A DNA stretch of 64,000 nt from an uncultured Acidobacteriota bacterium (lineage in GTDB: Bacteria; Acidobacteriota; Thermoanaerobaculia; Gp7-AA8): NCBI GenBank assembly GCA_963822445.1, contig CAWGHO010000001.1:1248001-1312000 (forward strand), given 5' to 3'. The notes below the pieces were generated by a model that saw only the letters and a list, made by a program, of their open reading frames with translations, made no database searches and was not told the DNA's origin. Of the stretch, positions 8,608 through 16,664 are shown one piece after another. Positions within the stretch are counted from its first letter, which is position 1. Each line of letters opens with the position of its first letter. Both the position numbers and the translations under genes were made by a program.

Positions 8608-9383
8608 TCCCAGAAATGAGGCCGGAGTCGACGGAAAAGGGCCGCGCCGATGAGCATCAAGCCGCCTGCGATCGTCCAGAAGGCAACTGCTTCGGCGACG
8701 GTCGGCGCGGCGAACGCCTGTGGCAGCAGCGCATGACGGTATCCGGAGACGACGTACGCGGCGGGGTTGAGAGCCAGCAGCGACTGTCCGCGCGGCGGCA
8801 GCGCCGTCGGCGCCCACGCGATCGGTGTCACCCAGAACCAGACGTTGAGAAAGGAGGGAAGGACCTGCTGCACGTCCCGCACGATGACGGCCAGGCCGGA
8901 GAGCATCATCCCGATTCCATGCGCGAGCACGACCGCGCAAGCATAGAAGTAAGGAAGGAGCAGCAGTCCGGGGAAGCTCGCGTAGCCGGACGAGACCGAC
9001 GCCGCGAGCGTGAGCGCCAGCAGCACGACGTGCGGCAGCGACTGCACGACGATCGAGCTCGCGGAGATGATCTGCAACGGAAAGCGGACGCGCTTGACGA
9101 GATGGCGGTGACCGATGATCGATCCCACGCCGCTGCCGATGCCCGTGGAGATGAGCACCCAGGGCACATACGCCGCGGCGAAGCCGAGGACGTAGGGCGC
9201 TTTGCCGAGCGGGAGACGAAGGCCGAGGGAAAAAATGGCCGTGAAGCACAGCAGCGGGATGAGCGGCGTGAGCACCGCCCAGGCCATGCCTGCCGCCGTG
9301 CCCGCGTACGTACGCCGAAGCTCCTGACGCGCAAGCGACGCCAGCAGATGCCGATTCGGCCAGAGGCCAGCCCGCTCGCGCAT
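8598..9383 (-). CDS. wzm: Polysaccharide ABC exporter permease
   Basis: ELRRTYAGTAAGMAWAVLTPL, LVKRVRFP, RDVQQVL, TPIAW, LNP motifs; several hydrophobic TM segments; probable start ATG 9383. Confidence 0.9.
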   Translation of the reverse strand: MRERAGLWPNRHLLASLARQELRRTYAGTAAGMAWAVLTPLIPLLCFTAIFSLGLRLPLGKAPYVLGFAAAYVPWVLISTGIGSGVGSIIGHRHLVKRVRFPLQIISASSIVVQSLPHVVLLALTLAASVSSGYASFPGLLLLPYFYACAVVLAHGIGMMLSGLAVIVRDVQQVLPSFLNVWFWVTPIAWAPTALPPRGQSLLALNPAAYVVSGYRHALLPQAFAAPTVAEAVAFWTIAGGLMLIGAALFRRLRPHFWECL

Positions 9384-9452
9384 GAACTGGTTAGGGTACC
9401 ACCGGCCCCGATGATCGCCTCGCCGTGAAACGCTTTCGCGGCCATCGCCACT

Positions 9453-10433
9453 ATGCAGGTGATGGCACTCCTTAACGAAGGACAAAACGCGACGTCCCTG
9501 CCGCCGCTGCCGAAGCGGTTCCGGCACCACGTGCTCTTTTCGTACGCCTCGGCGGACGCGGAGTACGTACGGGCCGTTCGCGCCGCCTTGCCCAAGGAAG
9601 TCGACGCGTTCGACTACGCGGAAGGGGGCATGTGGGGCGAACAGCTCGTGAAAGGGCTCGAGCACCGCTACAAGAATGAAGCGCCGTTCTGCGTCGTCTT
9701 CATTTCGAAGGCCTATCTCGCCAGTCCGTGGACGCAGAAAGAGCTCGGCATCGTCCAGCGCGTCGCCAAACGCAAGCCCGGATACATGTTGCCGGTCGTG
9801 CTCGACGGCACGATCGTCCCCGAGATCGAAGGGATCGTCTGGCTCGACAAGACCCTGACTCCCGAGCAGCTCGCGGCGCGTCTCGTCGCGAAAATTCGCG
9901 AGCCGCCGCCGAAGCCCTGGTGGTTTTACGTTTCCACCGAAGTCAAAGTCGCGATTGCGGCGGTGCTGCTCGCGCTGATCCTCTTCGCGCGTCCGGCGGT
10001 CAACTACTTCCGCCCCTCGCGCACGACGATCCGGTCGGTGAGCGCGAACGCGCAGGAAATCACCGCGCGCCTCGTGAACAGCGGCCCGAAGAGTTCCACC
10101 GTGGTCGGCCAGCGATTGAAGTTCGGTGCTCTGCCGATCGAGGACGCGGTGCTGCATCTCGACAAGAAGGCGTCCGCGACGATCGCCCCCGGCGGGCACG
10201 ACCTGAAGCTGAAAGCGCTGACGCTCCTGACCAAGTGCGACGCCAACGGCATCCTCCCGAACAACGACATGGTTGCGGCCCTCCTCGGTCAGCAACCCGT
10301 CACGCTTGAAGTCGATGTCCGGGAGTCCGACGACCCTCCCGGCCAGACGACGCGGAGGATCGCGACGATCCCTGCCGCGCGTCTCGAACCGTTCGTCAGA
10401 AGGTTGGCACCGAATGATCTCGATGATTGCTAA
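9453..10433 (+). CDS. TIR-domain protein with one TM helix and a predicted extracytoplasmic C-terminal domain
   Basis: VLFSYASAD...FCVVFISKAYLASPWTQKE (catalytic Glu position kept)...MLPVVLD; hydrophobic VAIAAVLLALILFA segment; beta-rich C-terminal region of about 140 aa. Confidence 0.85.
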   Translation: MQVMALLNEGQNATSLPPLPKRFRHHVLFSYASADAEYVRAVRAALPKEVDAFDYAEGGMWGEQLVKGLEHRYKNEAPFCVVFISKAYLASPWTQKELGIVQRVAKRKPGYMLPVVLDGTIVPEIEGIVWLDKTLTPEQLAARLVAKIREPPPKPWWFYVSTEVKVAIAAVLLALILFARPAVNYFRPSRTTIRSVSANAQEITARLVNSGPKSSTVVGQRLKFGALPIEDAVLHLDKKASATIAPGGHDLKLKALTLLTKCDANGILPNNDMVAALLGQQPVTLEVDVRESDDPPGQTTRRIATIPAARLEPFVRRLAPNDLDDC

Positions 10434-11175
10434 GGCCCTGGTTTGCGTTCTTCTCGCCGCGACCGCGGCACAAGCCCAGATCACCACGTCCCAGGTGAAT
10501 GTGTTCGTCAGGGGCAAGCGTTGCAGCGAACTGACGAACGTCTACCTCGTCATCAACGGCAAAGACCTCGACAGCGGCTGGGTCAAGCTCGAGCCGGCCG
10601 GGCCCTGCCGGTGGAAGGCCGACCTCGGCAGCGGCACGATCTCCACGAGCAACGCGCGCTTCAGCCTCCGCGGCGACTTCGCGCGCTCCGATTGCCAACG
10701 GGCCGCCCCGAACGAGGAGCAGCTCACCGCCAACCTCGAGTTTGCCTGCTGCGTCGAGGGGCCGCTCCGCAACGTGAGCGTGAAGATCGACCCTCCGATG
10801 CCGGTCAGTTACGTCCGCGACGTGCGGCCCTTCCCCGGCGCCCGGGTCCCCGGGATCAAATGCCTGGAAAGAGCGACCTTCAGTGAAGGACAAGGCTCGA
10901 TCGGCCATGCGCAGTTTTCCGGCGAAGACGTCTATCTCCATCTCGGCCCGTTCGACAGGAAACAGCCGATGCTCGGGCTGCTGCTCGATGACGTCGTCAA
11001 CGACGATGGTCCGCTGGTGCTAACGCGCGAAGGCGTGGTCTACCGGCTGGCCGTGCAGCGTGCGAAAGGAAAAGCGCGGAGCGCGCCGGCGGTGTCGTCG
11101 AACGCGATCCTGATCGACAGCAAGAAACTGGGCACGCTGAAGCTCGAGCGGGCCGAGATCGAGGTGATGAAATGA
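10414..11175 (+). CDS. Cys-rich secreted hypothetical protein
   Basis: Signal peptide MIAKALVCVLLAATAAQA-Q; six Cys in the mature region; start (10414 or 10423) overlaps the end of the TIR gene. Confidence 0.7.
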   Translation: MISMIAKALVCVLLAATAAQAQITTSQVNVFVRGKRCSELTNVYLVINGKDLDSGWVKLEPAGPCRWKADLGSGTISTSNARFSLRGDFARSDCQRAAPNEEQLTANLEFACCVEGPLRNVSVKIDPPMPVSYVRDVRPFPGARVPGIKCLERATFSEGQGSIGHAQFSGEDVYLHLGPFDRKQPMLGLLLDDVVNDDGPLVLTREGVVYRLAVQRAKGKARSAPAVSSNAILIDSKKLGTLKLERAEIEVMK

Positions 11176-12125
11176 CTCGTGCAGCCGCAATCCTCTTTGC
11201 TCTGGTCTTCGCCCTGACAGCCGCCGCGCAGGACCCGCTCTTCGGTCCGGATGACTCCGTCGATCCGCGCGCGACCGGCGGACGGCCGGTGTTCATCTCG
11301 CGGCTGGTCATCGGCGCCGCATCGAACATGAACGGCGACGGCTTCCGCCCCCTCGGCGAAAACGTCGGATACGTGCATCTCGCGACGAGTTTTTCCTGGC
11401 GGTCGGTGCAGTTCGATTACAAGCGGAGCCAGTTGAAGGCCGAAGATGGGGAGGCGGCGTTGTGGAACGTCAGCCAGGAGCGAGACCTGCTCATCTCTCC
11501 GCCACCACCGCAACAACCGCAGGAATCGCGGCTGATGCGCAACGCCACTCCGAAATCGAAAGACACGTTGAACGCGGCGGTTTACTGGCCGGTGCCGGTT
11601 GGCACGGGGATCCCGGTGATGCTTCGGTCACGGGTCACGTTCACGACGCAGCCGATCGATACGGAGGTCGTCGAGGACTCAGAGCTGCAACGCATGTCCG
11701 GCCGCGAGCGCACCTTCGCCATCGACACCGACACATGGTTTCGCGTCGCCGGTCTCAACGTATTCGGCTCACTCGCCGTCTCTGAAACGGAGACCACCGG
11801 CACACTTGCTGACCGCAAAGAGCGCGCACTCACCTACACCAATCGCTTTCCATCGCTCTCTCTCGATCGAGCAAAGATCCTGATCCGCCCGACTCTCACC
11901 GTCGGGGGCATCTCGAACCGCGGCGGCTCGGCGGTGAACCTCGTCAATCCGGCAATCGAGATCTTCCGGCCGTTCCTGCGCACCGGCGCAAACTTCCACC
12001 TCATCTACAGCCCGCAGTGGGTCAACGAAAACAATCCGCTCACTGAAATCGACGACGCGCGATGGGGGACCACGCATCAGGTCGCGATTTACCTCGACTA
12101 CCCGATCTTCGCGAAGATTTTCTAG
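11172..12125 (+). CDS. Secreted, probable outer-membrane beta-barrel hypothetical protein
   Basis: Signal peptide MTRAAAILFALVFALTAAA-Q; amphipathic beta-strand patterns; C-terminal Phe ([11 protein letters not shown]); ATGA-coupled to the upstream gene. Confidence 0.65.
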   Translation: MTRAAAILFALVFALTAAAQDPLFGPDDSVDPRATGGRPVFISRLVIGAASNMNGDGFRPLGENVGYVHLATSFSWRSVQFDYKRSQLKAEDGEAALWNVSQERDLLISPPPPQQPQESRLMRNATPKSKDTLNAAVYWPVPVGTGIPVMLRSRVTFTTQPIDTEVVEDSELQRMSGRERTFAIDTDTWFRVAGLNVFGSLAVSETETTGTLADRKERALTYTNRFPSLSLDRAKILIRPTLTVGGISNRGGSAVNLVNPAIEIFRPFLRTGANFHLIYSPQWVNENNPLTEIDDARWGTTHQVAIYLDYPIFAKIF

Positions 12126-14116
12126 AACACGGTTCCGAGGCCGATGCGGACGACCTCTCCGCCCCGGCGTTGAATCTGATCGACCATGTCCGCGGTGCCG
12201 CCCGGCCCGTCACCCTCTTTGCCGTTCCAGAGCGCGATGAGGGTCACGCGGCGGCTGCCGTTGGCGAGCGCGTTGTGCAGCATCCAGAGATTGTTGCGTT
12301 GCCAGACGCTGTAATCGGTGCGGTGCGCAAGCCACCGCGGCAGGTCCTCGGATGACTGCAGCACGCGGACGGGCGTCTTTTTCACGAGATCGTAAAACCT
12401 GCGCGTCCACTCAGGTCCGGCGGAGCTGACGGATCGCGTCGCGTACTCCTCCTCCGGAAGCGCGAGATAGACGGTCGTCGCGATTCCCCGCGCCTGACAT
12501 TCCTCATGGAAGAGGATGTCCCCTCCGCTCGCCGCGCCGGAAATTCCGATGACGTGATTGCCATGATGCGCAACGGCGCTGTCGATCGCGGCGCGTATCT
12601 CCTGTCGCGCGATGTCGACTTTGTCCGGAGGGAAACGGGGCGTCGCGCGATCCGGATCATCGACCCGATGTCCGGTGAACAGCAGCACATGCGGCGGATT
12701 CGGTCCGGATTGCGCTTCCGGCAATGTGTCGAGCGCCGCGCGTGCTGCCTCTTCGTAGATGCCGAGGCGGAGGAACATTTCCAGTTGTGCGCGTACGGCG
12801 CCGACCTGGAACGGCGAGATGCCGCGCACGAGGTTGTAGCGGCCCTTGACGCGACTGGCTGATTCGCCGCGATAGAACGACAGGTCCGCCTCGCTGATGT
12901 TCGCCCACAGATCCTGCGTGCCCGCGGCTTTGGCGAGCTCCTGTTCCGCATCGATCGAGGCCTGGACGGTCACGATCAGATCGGCGAGCCTTTTTTTACA
13001 CTGAGCCAGCTCGTGATCGGGATCATCGCTCTCGGAGCTGCCACGCCAGGTCTCCGAATCGGCGATCGCAAGTTGAGTAAGGATTACCAGCAGCCCGACG
13101 GCGTTGATGCCGGGAAAGTAGTTCGTGAGGTCGGTCCTGAATCCGGTCGAGTAGTGCTCGAAGGCCTGGCGCAGCCATCCCGATCCGAGTGCGCACCGGC
13201 GCGCCGCGTCGCGGTCTGCTTTCTCCGACCATTCCTTCAACCACTGGTTTTTTGCGTTGCGTCCTTTGAGCGCCAGCGCCTCGGCGCGTGCGCGGCGCGG
13301 AATGTCCGGCTGTGCGAGCACGCGATCGATGGCGATGTCCGAGTCGGCGAGACGGCCGAGTCGCTGATCGATGGTCGCCAGGAGGGTGTTGGTCTCGACG
13401 TCGTCCGCATCGAATCGGCGGACTGCTTCCCACGTCTCCTTCGCCGCTTCCATCGCCCGGAGTGCGAACTGCGCGCGGCCGATTGCCCGCAATCCCGTGC
13501 GCGCCCACGACACGCCCTCGATTTCCTCGGTGAGCAGCGCCAGATCGCCGGGAAGTTTTTCAGCCTTCGCGCGCTCGACCTCCGTGAGAAATGCCGGCGG
13601 CGCGGCGAGGAACGACTCCGCGTTCTGCTCGACCATGTCCGGCAGCAGGTTGAAAACGGGACTGTCGGTGACGCCTGCATGAATCGTCGCGTGAAGCGTC
13701 CGGACGAGATCGTCGACCGACGCCGCGGGGTTCTTGTCGTCGTAGGTGATGTAACGGTCGGTGAAGAGATCGAACACGACCTTGTCGCCGCCTTCCCGTC
13801 CGCGAATCATCACCGTCGCCGCGCGCCGCAACGCGTGGCGCAGACCGAGCTCGTAGAAGACGTTCGCGTTGTGAATGGAGACATCGGCGATGACGATGTC
13901 GGCAACCAGCAGCGCCTGGAACATGTCCGTGCGGATGTTGCCCGTGCGCAGGATCTCCATCGTCGTGCGTCCGTTGATGCCGAGGCGCTTCAGGGCGGGG
14001 TCGATCAACTCGGCCTCGACGCGGTCGAAATCGATTCCGCTCTTCGTTCCGAAGGGACGCACGATGAACGCGCGCCGGCTGCGCGTGTCCATGGTGGCCT
14101 GCGGGATGTCCGTCAT
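12122..14116 (-). CDS. Deoxyribohydrolase/nucleoside deoxyribosyltransferase-like domain + TPR (DUF4071/MAP3K TRAF-binding-like) + SLOG-like domain protein
   Basis: N-terminus: AFIVRPFG...DFDRV...[24 protein letters not shown]. Central TPR region: [16 protein letters not shown]-terminus: LFTGHRVD...PRFP...[13 protein letters not shown]...RNNLWM...[16 protein letters not shown]. Confidence 0.75.
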
Positions 14117-15234
14117 ACGAATCGGTCGAAGTGGTGCGCTTTCACCTTCATCTTACCCACGGCCTGTCCGACCTGCTGCAGTTCCGGAATGGCACCGATC
14201 GAATCGAGCTGCTGGACGTTCTGCGGTTTGATGCGCGGGAGCTTCAGTTTGTCGAGACCTTCGCGCGTGAGCTCGGTGTTGTAACGCACGTACGTGAAGA
14301 GCTTTTCTTTCGTGGGACCTTTCTTGCCGATCATGTCGCCGACCTCGCGATCGAGCTCGTCGCCGGCCAGCGTGTCTCCGAACGCGCGGCAGAGGAAATC
14401 CTGTTCATTGAGCGCGGCGAACATCAACGCGGACGGAATCGACGACGCGTTGTAGAGGAGGTTCATCTGGCCCGGCTGCAGGTCGTTGTTTGCGCTCGCG
14501 GCGGTGCCGGTGCCGATCGAGACGATGAGCATCCTGTCGCGGCCCGTCTCCCAGCAGAGGTTGTACGACTCGACCGTGGCCATCAGGAAAAGCTGGAAGG
14601 CCGGGTTGTTGTACATGGTCATTCCGCCGTCGACGAAGATGAAGCGCTGTTTCCCGATGTCGACCGCCTCGGGCGGAAAGTACGTCGGCGCGGCCGTGCT
14701 GGCGCGGACGAGCTGCCAGAGCGGCAGATTGAGATTGCAGTCGTCGCGATCGGCGGCGCAGTACTTCGCGGCCGGGTTGTTGGACAGCGGCCACGGAGAG
14801 TCGGTCGTCGCGTTGCGCAGGACCATCATCAGAAGGGTGCGCAGCTTCGTGCTCCCGAGCGTGGTGTTCGCACCGATGACCTGCCGCAGCTTCTTCGCCA
14901 GCGGCTCGTTCTCGAACTTGTAGTGCAGCTTGCGCAGCAGTCCGGCCCGGTCGAACATGGCCGGTCCGCTGTCGATGTAGAACTTGCGGATGTCGTCCAC
15001 GCGCATGCCGAGGGAGAGACAGGTGGCGATGATCGCGCCGGTGCTCGTGCCGGCGATGTAGTCGAAGTAATCGGAGAGAACGAACGTGTCGTCGCGCTTC
15101 AGGCGCTTCTGCAGCAGCGCTTCGATGGTGGCGAGGATCTCGACGGTCATCATCCCGCGAATGCCGCCTCCGTCGAGCGCGAGAAGCTTGCGGTTCGGTC
15201 TCGGTTCCAGTTTGGATTTGAAGGATGTGGCCAT
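14113..15234 (-). CDS. Patatin-like phospholipase (cytoplasmic)
   Basis: DGGGIRG, GTSTG (catalytic Ser), [13 protein letters not shown] (catalytic Asp); no signal peptide; ATGA-coupled to the downstream gene. Confidence 0.92.
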
Positions 15235-15280: not shown

Positions 15281-15904
15281 TCAACGGCTCATGCGAACGC
15301 CCACGTTCATGCGTCGATCGCGGTCCCACGCGGCGCCGTCGCCAGTGAGCGTCCGAAACTCGGCGAAGAGTGCCATCCGTCGCGTCACGAGTCCCGTCAC
15401 CGCGATTCCAAGATCGCCATTGATGCGTTCTTCGACATCAACCGCGAAAAAGGACCACGGCACGAGGTTTTGCGGTGTCAGATCCTCGACGGTGGGCTTC
15501 GCGACGTATCGAACACCGACTACTGTCGAAACGTCGACCCGCTCGGACAAGCGCCACGGAACGCGTGCGCCGAGGACCACGGCCGAACTGGAGATCTTCA
15601 TGCGGTGCGTGTCGAAGCAGGTATTCCGAACCGTGCCACAGAGCCTGCCGCCGGCGGTTACCGCGAGAACGTCCCGACGACGCTCGATCGCGACTTCCAG
15701 CGAGAAGCGCGGATGTACCGGCCACTCGAACGCCGCCCCGACAGCACCCTCCCACGAACGGATTTGCTCCCGGCCGTTAACGGAGGTTTGTTCCGTGGAG
15801 GGGTGAGTGATGCCGCTGCCGTACAAGGAGATCGTGGCCTTTCGCTGACCTTCTGCACGGCAGAGCGGCAGCAGCAAAAGCACCAGGAAAAGAACTTTCC
15901 TCAT
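15281..15904 (-). CDS. Outer-membrane beta-barrel protein (OmpW/OmpA-like)
   Basis: Signal peptide MRKVLFLVLLLLPLCRAEG; alternating beta-strand patterns (GAVGAAFEW, FSLEVAIE, VGVRYV, ALFAEFR). Confidence 0.6.
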   Translation of the reverse strand: MRKVLFLVLLLLPLCRAEGQRKATISLYGSGITHPSTEQTSVNGREQIRSWEGAVGAAFEWPVHPRFSLEVAIERRRDVLAVTAGGRLCGTVRNTCFDTHRMKISSSAVVLGARVPWRLSERVDVSTVVGVRYVAKPTVEDLTPQNLVPWSFFAVDVEERINGDLGIAVTGLVTRRMALFAEFRTLTGDGAAWDRDRRMNVGVRMSR

Positions 15905-15990
15905 GGTGGCTGAACAGATACGGCGTTGGGTGCACGGGTGTTGGCGGGGAGGCGTCACGGCGCCCGCGAGGTACAATCGCGCGAGTCATC

Positions 15991-16242
15991 ATGCCTGCAA
16001 CGCACACCACTGATCTGGAAACGGAGCTGCGTTACTTCGGCGAGCATCGATCCGATTTGTTGGAGACAGCGGCTGGTAAGTTTGCACTGGTCAAGGGTGA
16101 GACTCTGATCGGAACGTTCGACTCCGAAACGGAAGCAATACGGCATGGATATCAGACGCTCGGAAACGTCGCGTTTCTCGTCAAGCAAGTCACCGAAGCA
16201 GACATCCCGCTCAGCTTCACTTCTTTTAATCTCGGGGTGTAG
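15991..16242 (+). CDS. Small protein, DUF5678-like
   Basis: YF..HR..LL..AAGKFALVKGETLIGTFDSETEAIRHGY...FLVKQV pattern; directly abuts an aspartic protease gene. Confidence 0.65.
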   Translation: MPATHTTDLETELRYFGEHRSDLLETAAGKFALVKGETLIGTFDSETEAIRHGYQTLGNVAFLVKQVTEADIPLSFTSFNLGV

Positions 16243-16664
16243 TTGCCTTCCTTCGAGATTTCTCTTCCCGACCTGAAAACCTCAGGCCCGATCGTCCAGG
16301 GCTTCATCGGACCGTCTCGTGAGTTGATCAGTGCGCTGGGCGCCGATGCGGTTGCTGCGCCGATCCCTGTCTCGGCACTGGTCGATACAGGCGCGGCAGC
16401 CACGGTCATAACGCCCGAGACGGCGGCCTTGCTCCGGCTCCGCAGCGTTGGAGCCGTTTCAGTGCATACGCCCACGACGATCGAGCCGGTGCTTTGTCGG
16501 CAGTTCCACGTGAACGTGTATCTCTCGTCCAGTTTCGCAATCGAGAACGTCGTGAAGCACCGCTGACTGGTCAGTCATTCCAGTGTCTTGTCGGTCGTGA
16601 CGTTCTCAGTCGCGGCGTTTTCACGTACGACGGCATTCGCAGTCGTTTCAGTCTCACCTTCTGA
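16243..16664 (+). CDS. Retropepsin-like (clan AA) aspartic protease, frameshifted near 16553
   Basis: ALVDTGAAAT in the first frame (stop at 16566). The expected C-terminus, EAPLTGQSFQCLVGRDVLSRGVFTYDG...FSLTF*, continues in another frame to TGA 16662-16664. Confidence 0.8.

Follow-up and report, generated by a model that had tools for sequence, protein, structure and literature searches.

A patatin lipase gene coupled to a DRHyd/TPR-S/SLOG gene in an uncultured Acidobacteriota bacterium: a putative new member of a predicted class of conflict systems

Conflict systems that join a DRHyd domain to TPR-S were reportedly predicted by Burroughs and Aravind in J Bacteriol in 2020, and the same authors, to whom the TPR-S family is credited, are said to have expected TPR-S to read NAD-derived signals and not invaders. 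As described, the partner genes of these systems, whose core is termed Tpr, encode TIR, YspA-type SLOG, patatin, LSDAT, calcineurin or caspase proteins. One preprint counts 78 Tpr operons, with five YspA-Tpr and four Patatin-Tpr among them, notes that the domains can be fused, and finds 29 of the 78 cores standing alone (10.1101/2023.05.26.542521). The sole functional precedent comes from the same preprint and concerns a relative without SLOG and without patatin, BcTpr of Bacillus cereus. This glycosidase-TPR protein is reported to make a cADPR isomer and deplete NAD+, to be autoinhibited, and to lose both activity and defense when mutated to N82A or E86A, while BcTir/Tpr is reported to defend against phage (10.1101/2023.05.26.542521).

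The locus analyzed here lies in a stretch of 64,000 nucleotides of contig CAWGHO010000001.1 (assembly GCA_963822445.1), referred to as the window, within which all coordinates are given. In the ORF list, a gene for a patatin-like phospholipase resembling CBASS lipases (14113..15234, minus strand, 373 residues) is followed by a gene for a DRHyd/TPR-S/SLOG protein (12122..14116, minus strand, 664 residues), each with an ATG start. The plus strand reads TCAT at 14113..14116, which is ATGA on the minus strand, so that the patatin stop codon overlaps the start of the larger gene, as the initial annotation had proposed. Four-base overlaps by themselves are frequent in operons. What goes beyond chance is the conservation of the pair rather than the overlap. 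Among 67 genome loci, which come from many phyla, patatin adjoins the large gene in 43, lying upstream on the same strand in 39, downstream in three and on the opposite strand in one; of the metagenome loci, 32 could be evaluated, and 22 have it as a neighbor. Spacing is also tight: in 23 of 34 related loci, no more than 45 nt separate the stop codon of patatin from the large protein's first conserved residues, the gaps being short or negative. Patatin is the only neighbor family common to the loci, and no third conserved gene was found. The conserved-pair analysis suggested with the annotation leaves its self-contained two-gene unit standing as a conserved unit of patatin and the large gene.

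The association is nevertheless not obligatory. Patatin is missing nearby in 21 of the 64 genome loci with usable flank (three of the 24 genome loci without patatin have almost no upstream flank) and in 10 of 32 metagenome loci, so the large protein is not strictly dependent on it. Effector-type genes adjoin the large gene in seven loci without patatin; its neighbors include a family of lipase-CHAT proteins at L030, L032 and L036 (1,632 residues; domains from a scan of the L030 copy), SLATT/DUF4231 genes at L026 and L047, an alpha/beta-hydrolase lipase at L017 and a TIR gene at L015. Fusions of the nSTAND1/ParA-like kind are also associated with the family. Relatives of the system are present on conjugative plasmids, and plasmid loci carry either patatin followed by a DUF4071 protein or a TRAFs-binding protein followed by DUF4231 and TIR genes.

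Across genomes, the family is large and scattered. Among 8,000 scored candidates, 2,202 matched the 664-residue protein at E <= 0.001, those among the matches listed being mostly about 660 residues long, and 578 relatives occur in species-representative genomes of many phyla; both figures exceed the 78 operons that the preprint quotes for Tpr cores. A full-length copy was found in one of 24 congeners, at 49% identity, and the SLOG domain in six of 300 further genomes from the phylum. Cultured carriers with adjacent patatin are Pyxidicoccus caerfyrddinensis CA032A, Bradyrhizobium japonicum SZCCT0231, Segetibacter sp. 3557_3 and Arenibacter certesii DSM 19833.

The AlphaFold2 model of the 664-residue protein (pLDDT 87.2, pTM 0.78) begins with a Rossmannoid DRHyd domain at residues 15 to 160 (13637..14074, minus strand), related to nucleoside deoxyribosyltransferase (NDT), DNPH1 and MilB by Foldseek and VIA. 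Modeled alone (pLDDT 86.8), this domain had DNPH1 8rpt (E 2.5e-5) and NDT 8pqr as its best Foldseek matches, with DNPH1 and NDT entries at E 2.5e-5 to 1e-4 and MilB 4jem at rank 38; VIA Z scores were 12.2 for MilB, 12.1 for TIR and 12.0 for NDT, and a PADLOC TIR-effector profile also matched the region at E 8.7e-7. Its NANVFYELG motif (13844..13870, minus strand), which holds the predicted catalytic Glu89 together with Asn83 and Asn85, aligns to GYELG of DNPH1 at a subthreshold E of 0.18, and N83, A84, N85, Y88, E89, L90 and G91 are invariant in alignments of 36 and 46 sequences. The NDT-like fold with an intact motif that had been read from the sequence is thus confirmed.

Like the published Tpr cores, the 664-residue protein combines a deoxyribohydrolase-type domain with TPR-S. 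An NDT-like domain with a conserved Glu, TPR-S after it and linked genes of the conflict type place the pair in the DRHyd/TPR-S class, a class already predicted in print, which the initial annotation did not mention. By the preprint's description and motif spacing, N83, N85 and E89 repeat the N-x-N-x3-E pattern of N80, N82 and E86 in BcTpr, which is likewise followed by TPRs and encoded in a two-gene operon. BcTpr differs in its length of 415 residues, in having no SLOG domain, and in its partner, an inactive TIR protein instead of a lipase. Judged by the same description, what sets this locus apart from published Tpr cores is that patatin and a YpsA-like SLOG domain occur together, with the SLOG domain fused to the core.

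The helical repeats at residues 172 to 470 (12707..13603, minus strand; Pfam and VIA) match Pfam TPR-S (PF20308) at residues 222 to 342 (E 4.6e-12; 46.9 bits against a cutoff of 27.6), and nearly all of the 120 homologs listed carry this family. VIA aligned the region with RapF (Z 16.2) and, also among its three best matches, with the central regulatory region of ASK1 (5ulm_B, Z 15.1, 246 residues aligned, rmsd 3.7; 8qgy_B, Z 14.9), while many other TPR proteins scored about 13; the Foldseek match to 8qgy_B spans 499 columns, which VIA confines to residues 172 to 470. Both a TPR region and its ASK1-like character had been claimed; the TPR-S match upholds the former and, together with the superposition on ASK1, favors the latter. 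The putative likeness to the N-terminal regulatory region of ASK1/MAP3K5 consists in this superposition and the common Pfam family. Unlike the animal kinase, the 664-residue protein has no kinase domain by Pfam scan and no PH domain, and PF13281 (MAP3K_TRAF_bd) stays below threshold (E 0.031; 13.7 bits against 24.1). ASK1, whose thioredoxin-binding domain would be the expected counterpart of DRHyd, is also absent among the listed Foldseek and VIA matches of the N-terminal domain model, and it is much nearer to the neighboring paralogous family in the congener G011 (PF13281, E 5.6e-47). Among relatives, identity is lowest in the TPR region (32 to 42%, compared with 55 to 68% in DRHyd), as might also be expected if it sensed variable phage proteins.

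The C-terminal domain, residues 474 to 664 (12125..12697, minus strand), carries the TGH (12668..12676), GGD (12518..12526) and GGT (12194..12202) motifs, which, with NANVFYELG, are invariant across an alignment of 36 homologs; all motifs quoted in the initial annotation occur where it had placed them. The top structural match in VIA is Bacillus subtilis YpsA (2nx2), founding member of the YpsA clade of SLOG (Z 16.9, rmsd 2.7, 158 of 178 residues aligned), with DprA (Z 12.9) and ShosA (Z 12.7) also retrieved, so that the domain is of SLOG fold, as had been predicted. Of the refuting outcomes named with the initial annotation, neither a C-terminal domain of another fold nor a lack of pair conservation was thus observed. 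The sequence match to YpsA is not significant. Invariant G531-G532-D533 may be likened, by motif type alone, to G53 and E55, the predicted nucleotide-binding residues of YpsA, a stand-alone factor in cell division and oxidative stress (PMC6459960). Pfam YAcAr (PF10686) reached E 0.017 to 0.084 (13 to 15 bits, gathering cutoff 28.2), and four of 41 family members matched it at E <= 1, the best at 5.3e-4; since the domain misses the Pfam SLOG thresholds, it may be a sensor or an enzyme. The nearest named ESM Atlas clusters, YspA/YpsA SLOG with a score of 0.87, serve only as a lead.

That the SLOG domain is an added one, as first proposed, holds because it exists both fused and as a gene of its own. 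A split form, in which the gene after patatin encodes SLOG alone, occurs in three loci, namely, the congener G011 and the metagenome contigs L076 and L078. In G011, a patatin 84% identical to ours precedes a 197-residue SLOG protein with 78% identity, which has its own GGAG and GTG start and is faced by a separate gene for a DRHyd and MAP3K_TRAF_bd/TPR-S protein. L076 has the same layout, and the separate DRHyd-TPR gene is therefore present in two of the three split loci. At L079, a different DRHyd-TPR lineage is fused to SLOG.

The lipase matches Pfam PF01734 (E 3.1e-27) and has the complete patatin signature of GGGxRG, GxSxG and DGG. Its oxyanion-hole motif DGGGIRG spans residues 21 to 27, and the codons for the nucleophile Ser64 in GTSTG (15043..15045) and the catalytic Asp202 in VDGG (14629..14631), both on the minus strand, were assigned from sequence motifs and the family alignment. 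All but one of the family's 45 patatin ORFs contain GTSTG, and S64, D202, G203 and G204 are all invariant (patatin alignment A3). The predicted Ser-Asp dyad is thus kept, and the sequence resembles those of CBASS lipases. CapV-type patatins of CBASS are its best-scoring relatives, with the same catalytic motifs (PADLOC CBASS phospholipase effector PDLC00758, E 1.6e-46). The locus differs from CBASS in that the lipase, at 124.1 bits (E 6.8e-36), is under the equivalog cutoff of 200 of NCBIfam CBASS_lipase, whose alignment leaves out its C-terminal 80 residues, and in that no third conserved gene, as a CD-NTase partner would be, emerged among the neighbor families.

Thoeris offers a second comparison. 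Its ThsA SLOG recognizes variant cADPR (PMC9503650), and we predict for our locus the same kind of chain, in which an NAD-derived cyclic ADPR-type signal is read by a YpsA-clade SLOG domain and a cell-killing effector follows (PMC9503650). However, the Thoeris generator is the TIR protein ThsB, whereas here it would be DRHyd; the Thoeris SLOG is fused to the effector, whereas here it is joined to the generator or encoded separately; and the effector is SIR2, Macro or TM instead of a patatin lipase. The locus itself falls outside Thoeris, given that the top Foldseek matches of the N-terminal domain are NDT and DNPH1, notwithstanding the TIR-effector profile match, and that SLOG is fused to the generator and not the effector.

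Considering these data, we find it quite probable that the pair is a two-gene conflict module of the DRHyd/TPR-S class with an immune role, most likely in anti-phage defense of the abortive-infection type. In this scenario, the 664-residue protein would be held inactive until infection, with the TPR-S array gating DRHyd. The DRHyd N-glycosidase, through Glu89, Asn83 and Asn85, would then cleave NAD+ to a messenger derived from ADP-ribose, a cADPR isomer in kind, which the C-terminal SLOG may read by analogy with ThsA. Liganded SLOG would license the cotranslated patatin (Ser64/Asp202), probably via oligomerization or direct contact, and the lipase would degrade membrane phospholipids so that the infected cell is stopped. 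This particular order of events is put forward tentatively; class and order taken together, we assign the explanation a probability of roughly 0.55. Likewise hypothetical is the chain drawn in the initial annotation, in which the TPR would sense an invader, a nucleotide would be made or bound, and the lipase would be activated as a result. A more daring and rather doubtful extension is that the 664-residue protein is a single-chain "write-and-read" device, wherein DRHyd writes a cADPR-type signal that its own SLOG reads, probably between protomers, as a self-amplifying threshold switch licensing the separate lipase. The split forms would then show SLOG and lipase to be the receiver arm, and ASK kinases would contain a cADPR-responsive module whose equivalent in prokaryotes is the TPR-S gate. 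In flies, a 2026 study puts Ask1 downstream of cADPR and suggests it as a possible cADPR receptor (PMC13455253).

Another reading, unlikely but deserving weight, makes the patatin itself the receptor, to which a diffusible NAD-derived messenger made by DRHyd would bind as cGAMP binds CapV in CBASS, leaving SLOG as a feedback element or as a messenger-trimming or messenger-degrading enzyme. The best patatin scores are indeed to nucleotide-activated CBASS lipases, and N-glycosidase activity on ADPR derivatives occurs among SLOG domains (PMC9503650). Divergence of patatin correlates weakly with that of the large protein (Spearman 0.25 to 0.31, against 0.74 for TPR and SLOG), and at L007 a patatin 82% identical accompanies a large protein only 42 to 58% identical, which together argue against a tightly coevolving protein interface; such weak coevolution and partner exchange fit a small-molecule link. 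On the other hand, patatin has the stand-alone SLOG gene immediately after it in all three split forms, with DRHyd-TPR apart in two, the small SLATT proteins and the plain lipase found as neighbors have no nucleotide-sensor domain by Pfam, and the score of 124 bits is well short of the CBASS_lipase cutoff. The same weak coevolution, along with nucleotide pockets, both predicted, that are invariant across phyla and would be needless in a mere binder, leaves only the slimmest chance to a toxin-antitoxin-like arrangement, in which the large protein binds and neutralizes the lipase stoichiometrically, is degraded or inactivated on infection, and has a nucleotide chemistry without signaling role, even though translational coupling and the fixed lipase-first order suggest stoichiometric coproduction.

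It is improbable that NAD+ depletion by DRHyd is the effector arm with patatin as an accessory, or that the pair is a nonimmune regulator of stress or lipid remodeling. The reported NAD+ depletion by BcTpr and the Tpr cores that stand alone (10.1101/2023.05.26.542521) favor the former, the role of YpsA in cell division and oxidative stress (PMC6459960) favors the latter, and the roughly one-third of loci here without patatin would suit either. Against both stand the patchy, horizontally shuffled distribution, the typical conflict effectors and nSTAND1/ParA-like fusions, carriage of relatives on conjugative plasmids, and an intact, tightly coupled lipase. There is a small chance, finally, that a constitutive messenger keeps SLOG occupied and the lipase off until phage sponges or hydrolases of cADPR-type signals release it. 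Panoptes uses such guard logic with a SLATT-type effector (PMC12657218), SLATT proteins stand in for patatin at two of our loci, and, according to the preprint, BcTpr alone sustained a high level of the cADPR isomer at every time point and lowered NAD+ in the absence of phage (10.1101/2023.05.26.542521); the TPR gate and the reported BcTpr autoinhibition nevertheless point to induced activity.

In conclusion, the patatin gene and the 664-residue gene form a putative new member of a predicted class, for which we infer the mechanism given above. If that proposal is true, it would add a widespread defense system, with at least 2,202 protein clusters at 90% identity besides the relatives in species-representative genomes, to PADLOC 2.0 and NCBIfam, neither of which has a model for the 664-residue protein. 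It would also describe a Thoeris-like NAD-messenger pathway in which DRHyd replaces TIR as generator and a lipase serves as effector. Nature provides both fused and split variants, a ready-made dissection of interdomain communication. Furthermore, as TPR-S is common to animal ASK1-3, and cADPR is reported to act upstream of Ask1 in flies, work on a tractable relative from bacteria could help to show whether ADPR-derived ligands bind to this scaffold.

The patatin gene and the gene encoding the 664-amino-acid protein lie together on the minus strand, the 373-amino-acid patatin frame at 15234-14113 and the larger frame at 14116-12122, each with an ATG start. An ATGA is common to both, reading TCAT on the plus strand at 14113-14116, just as the initial annotation had it, and close homologues of the 664-residue protein also have its N-terminal extension ahead of the first conserved strand, evidence in favour of the upstream ATG and with it of the overlap. 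The motifs quoted there were likewise all found, NANVFYELG at residues 83-91 (13844-13870) and TGH, GGD and GGT of the SLOG domain at residues 481-483, 531-533 and 639-641, and each is invariant across 36 aligned homologues of 48-80% identity. A promoter and terminator scan gave no promoter-like sites and terminator-like sites at no more than chance level. The GC content dips slightly (0.61-0.64 versus 0.65-0.68), too slightly to be diagnostic, and we rejected it as a sign of an island. Among the sequencing runs listed as carrying this DNA there was no RNA run, and just 5-9% of sampled words were present in six DNA metagenome runs.

The family of the large protein is itself large and constant in length, with 2202 proteins at E <= 0.001 among 8000 scored candidates. 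Relatives are encoded in 578 stretches of species-representative genomes, 67 of which were kept; these come from Acidobacteriota, Nitrospirota, Cyanobacteria, Planctomycetota, Myxococcota, Verrucomicrobiota, Chloroflexota, Alpha-, Beta- and Gammaproteobacteria, Actinomycetota, Bacteroidota and Chlorobium. The pair proved to be conserved, as a patatin homologue is found within the 5-kb flanks of 43 of the 67 loci, directly upstream on the same strand in 39, downstream in three (L002, L023 and L063) and on the opposite strand in one (L044), while among the 24 patatin-less loci three (L048, L056 and L062) have almost no upstream DNA. All-against-all clustering of the flanking frames left patatin as the sole real neighbour in common (43 loci and the window), the remaining large clusters being shadow frames over patatin and the large gene. 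The spacing is tight, with 45 nt or less between the patatin stop and the first conserved residues of the large protein in 23 of 34 measurable loci. A further 80 metagenome loci were found via the SLOG domain, and of the 32 evaluable ones (N terminus present and at least 1150 nt upstream) patatin adjoins the large gene in 22, upstream in 20, downstream in one and on the opposite strand in one, and is absent from 10. In the closest relative (L075), the two genes abut likewise, and the large protein and patatin are 84% and 92% identical to those of the window.

The 373-residue protein is a patatin (PF01734, E 3.1e-27) with the motifs DGGGIRG, GTSTG (Ser64) and VDGG (Asp202), which are kept throughout the family. 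Searched against defence libraries, it scores best with phospholipase effectors of CBASS (PADLOC PDLC00758, E 1.6e-46), but at 124 bits it falls below the cut-off of 200 for the NCBIfam CBASS_lipase equivalog.

All three domains attributed to the large protein in the initial annotation were recovered. An alignment-based AlphaFold2 model was confident (pLDDT 87.2, pTM 0.78); because TPR proteins swamped the terminal domains when the whole model was searched with Foldseek, we relied on structural re-alignment (VIA) and on a separate model of the N-terminal domain (pLDDT 86.8). At the top of the Foldseek list for the latter stand human DNPH1 and nucleoside 2'-deoxyribosyltransferases (from E 2.5e-5 upward), and MilB comes further down, which bears out the deoxyribosyltransferase-like fold. 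A Foldseek-independent search scored MilB (Z 12.2), the deoxyribosyltransferases (Z 12.0 and 11.8) and TIR domains (Z 12.1 and 11.5) about equally, and residues 16-129 match a PADLOC TIR-effector profile (E 8.7e-7). In a PDB search, the N-terminal profile placed ADxxIADxS...NVFYELG onto the GYELG stretch of DNPH1 at a sub-threshold E of 0.18-0.4; the single full-length sequence found no match in the PDB, and the full-length profile found designed or generic TPR proteins only. The predicted TPR region was detected by Pfam as TPR-S (PF20308, E 4.6e-12, residues 222-342), a domain that Burroughs and Aravind in 2020 and Burroughs et al. in 2015 reportedly predicted to read NAD-derived signals. Structural comparison matched residues 172-470 to RapF (Z 16.2) and to the ASK1 central regulatory region (5ulm_B, Z 15.1; 8qgy_B, Z 14.9), with generic TPR proteins at Z around 13; the likeness to ASK1 concerns this TPR part.

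The C-terminal domain goes unrecognised at the sequence level. The weak Pfam matches of the large protein are MAP3K_TRAF_bd (E 0.031) and the YAcAr SLOG family (E 0.084), and YAcAr is reached at E <= 1 by only 4 of 41 members; a profile of the domain found no credible relative in the PDB. The predicted SLOG-like fold was nevertheless borne out structurally when Foldseek candidates were re-aligned: the best match to residues 474-664 is Bacillus subtilis YpsA (2nx2; Z 16.9, rmsd 2.7, 158 of 178 residues), and DprA (Z 12.9) and ShosA (Z 12.7) cover the same residues. Among named ESM Atlas clusters, those of YspA/YpsA SLOG proteins come nearest (0.87), which we take as a lead only. YpsA is described as the founder of a SLOG clade, and its ligand is predicted to bind at a GxD/E motif (PMC6459960). 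In the large protein, the invariant G531-G532-D533 agrees with this motif by pattern, as distinct from a residue-by-residue equivalence.

The module is sporadic among close relatives. The window's genome has a single copy of the large gene, and one of 24 congeners has a full-length homologue, 49% identical, with a TIR gene adjoining in place of patatin; in 300 further genomes of the phylum the SLOG domain occurs in six, each time within an open frame of 652-791 amino acids. Of the three domains, the TPR region is the most divergent (32-42% identity to the window, against 55-68% for DRHyd and 42-60% for SLOG). A mirror-tree test for one domain co-evolving with patatin made none stand out: the Spearman correlation of pairwise divergence is weak for all three (0.25-0.31), against 0.74 between TPR and SLOG. 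At L007 (3845-6956 of that locus), a patatin 82% identical to that of the window accompanies a large protein only 42-58% identical by domain, a contrast that suggests that effector and sensor genes have recombined.

Natural split forms separate the same parts further. In a genome of the window's genus (L070, G011:C324, 1130-4819), a patatin 84% identical to ours is followed 12 nt later, with GGAG in the gap, by a 197-amino-acid gene that starts with GTG and is 78% identical to residues 470-664, hence a stand-alone SLOG domain. The gene that faces it belongs to another lineage and has NANVFYELG, a strong MAP3K_TRAF_bd match (E 5.6e-47), by which it is far closer to ASK1 in Pfam than the window's protein, and TPR-S (E 4.8e-29); it is only 27% identical to residues 16-343 of the window's protein. 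L076 has the same layout, its short gene retaining a piece that matches residues 172-219 ahead of SLOG; in L078 the SLOG domain comes directly after patatin, and in L079 the DRHyd-TPR protein of this second type is fused to SLOG. When the same parts occur now fused, now split in neighbouring genes, this is classically taken as evidence of joint action. At each of the three split loci observed, the SLOG gene comes immediately after the gene for the lipase, and for this reason we place the SLOG domain between signal and effector. Among the best 150 of 4441 SLOG-domain representatives (E <= 0.001), 46 are 640-720 amino acids long and 87 are shorter than 450; 72 of the latter begin with Met and many have the same short helical leader, but they may include short-contig fragments, and we therefore give no frequency of stand-alone forms. 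Separately, L069/L014 (G008:C61) and L077 retain nothing of the large protein but a SLOG domain, 71-73% identical to residues 471-664, directly after an unrelated 756-amino-acid secreted repeat protein and with no patatin nearby; in that lineage the module looks decayed or rearranged.

Other partners occupy the place of patatin elsewhere, and swapped cell-killing partners are a typical pattern of conflict systems. Twelve chosen neighbour frames were scanned in the loci without patatin. Downstream of the large gene, L030 encodes a 1632-amino-acid protein combining DUF7379/LCAT-lipase, CHAT and TPR, and L032 and L036 have same-sized frames of the same cluster family (the domains were read in L030); L023 carries a member of this family (9144-11963) in addition to patatin. 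SLATT/DUF4231 membrane proteins lie upstream of the large gene in L026 and L047, an alpha/beta-hydrolase lipase and a metallophosphoesterase beside it in L017, a metallophosphoesterase in L055 and a TIR gene just upstream in L015. On plasmids, Rhizobium leguminosarum has patatin followed by a DUF4071 protein, and Rhizobium sophoriradicis has a TRAFs-binding protein followed by DUF4231 and TIR, the DUF4071 and TRAFs-binding proteins being relatives of the DRHyd-TPR part. In two Acidobacteriota loci (L003, 3444-7028; L015, 3420-7016), the DRHyd-TPR-S-SLOG frame stays open on its upstream side and takes in a ParA-like P-loop and nSTAND1 region, about 1195 amino acids in all; these are either true fusions or adjacent in-frame genes. 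As side observations, the giant protein, of more than 1630 amino acids and truncated where the locus stops, is encoded downstream of the large gene in four betaproteobacterial-type loci (from about 7100 to the locus end in L030, L032 and L036), and in L030 it shows two lipase-like alpha/beta-hydrolase regions (DUF7379 and LCAT-like), a CHAT protease domain and TPR. Temperate phages of Staphylococcus and Streptococcus encode a hypothetical protein 36-37% identical to DRHyd residues 14-125 (E 5e-8 to 2e-7); judged by this similarity, the catalytic domain has a relative carried by phages.

Around the pair in the window, three plus-strand genes (9453-12125) converge on the large gene: a 326-amino-acid TIR_2-domain protein (Pfam E 4.1e-13; PADLOC PDC-S66, 1.7e-7), then frames of 300 and 317 amino acids with no family match, which share 4 bases, the stop of the last overlapping that of the large gene in CTAG at 12122-12125. 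By eye, the 317-residue frame, and the 300-residue frame from an internal Met, have a signal-peptide-like hydrophobic start. Together the three may form a second unit of defence type, in which case the region would be a small island. Upstream of patatin, a minus-strand frame of 231 amino acids (15281-15976; no family match, N-terminal region signal-peptide-like by eye) ends 46 nt before the patatin start; co-transcription is possible, but it is probably unrelated to the module because it lacks conservation in related loci. None of the TIR gene, the two secreted-protein genes and the 231-residue frame has a relative in the 67 related loci, a PADLOC scan of these neighbours gave no hits, and we rejected them as parts of the module. 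Two abutting plus-strand frames of 83 and 107 amino acids (15991-16566) lie between the module and a PBP1A gene, the longer weakly matching a retropepsin-like aspartyl protease (PF13650, E 3.6e-5).

The closest experimental precedent is a Bacillus cereus operon that, according to the preprint describing it, came from Burroughs and Aravind 2020 (10.1101/2023.05.26.542521). Its BcTpr protein, of 415 amino acids, is described as a MilB-like glycosidase domain followed by a TPR at the C terminus, as depleting NAD+ and synthesizing a cADPR isomer, and as binding cADPR with a Kd of 1.9 uM; with N82A or E86A, NAD+ depletion and isomer synthesis are reportedly both lost, as is defence against T phages (10.1101/2023.05.26.542521). 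The N80-x-N82-x3-E86 spacing of BcTpr equals N83-x-N85-x3-E89 in the window. Of 78 'Tpr core' operons listed in the same preprint, 29 stand alone, 28 have TIR, 5 YspA and 4 patatin, others have LSDAT or calcineurin, and the partner domains can be fused. TIR, DrHyd and SLOG are elsewhere grouped in one Rossmannoid clade, with DrHyd members working as NADases or cyclases and variant cADPR sensed by YpsA-clade SLOG domains, as in ThsA (PMC9503650). A literature search for later experimental work on the patatin and DRHyd-TPR-S-SLOG architecture found the BcTir/BcTpr preprint alone, and PADLOC 2.0 and NCBIfam hold no model for the large protein.

The anatomy, conservation, shuffling and intact pockets of the module are matters of observation; for its action we propose a model that takes BcTpr, Thoeris and CBASS as analogues. 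On infection, a TPR-gated block on the large protein would be lifted, and its DRHyd domain would use NAD+ to make a messenger derived from ADPR. Binding of this messenger would allow the SLOG domain to switch on the patatin lipase, and the resulting membrane damage would abort the infection. In the main rival explanation, the lipase itself binds the messenger and SLOG is a feedback or degrading element, which the weak co-evolution of patatin with the large protein favours. Against a lipase receptor stand the fixed adjacency of SLOG and lipase in the split forms and the alternative neighbours examined, which are without a recognised sensor domain. NAD depletion, reported for BcTpr, might instead be the real effector, the pair might follow a decoy or guard logic, or it might be a plain toxin-antitoxin pair, all of which we consider less likely.

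The module belongs to the class predicted in 2020, one member of which was tested in the preprint. What our analysis adds is a measure of how extensive and how tight the pairing with patatin is, the structural confirmation of a divergent SLOG domain that sequence libraries miss, and the natural variants in fused and split form. According to a 2026 fly study, Ask1 acts downstream of cADPR and may be its receptor (PMC13455253), a link that lends bacterial TPR-S proteins some wider interest.
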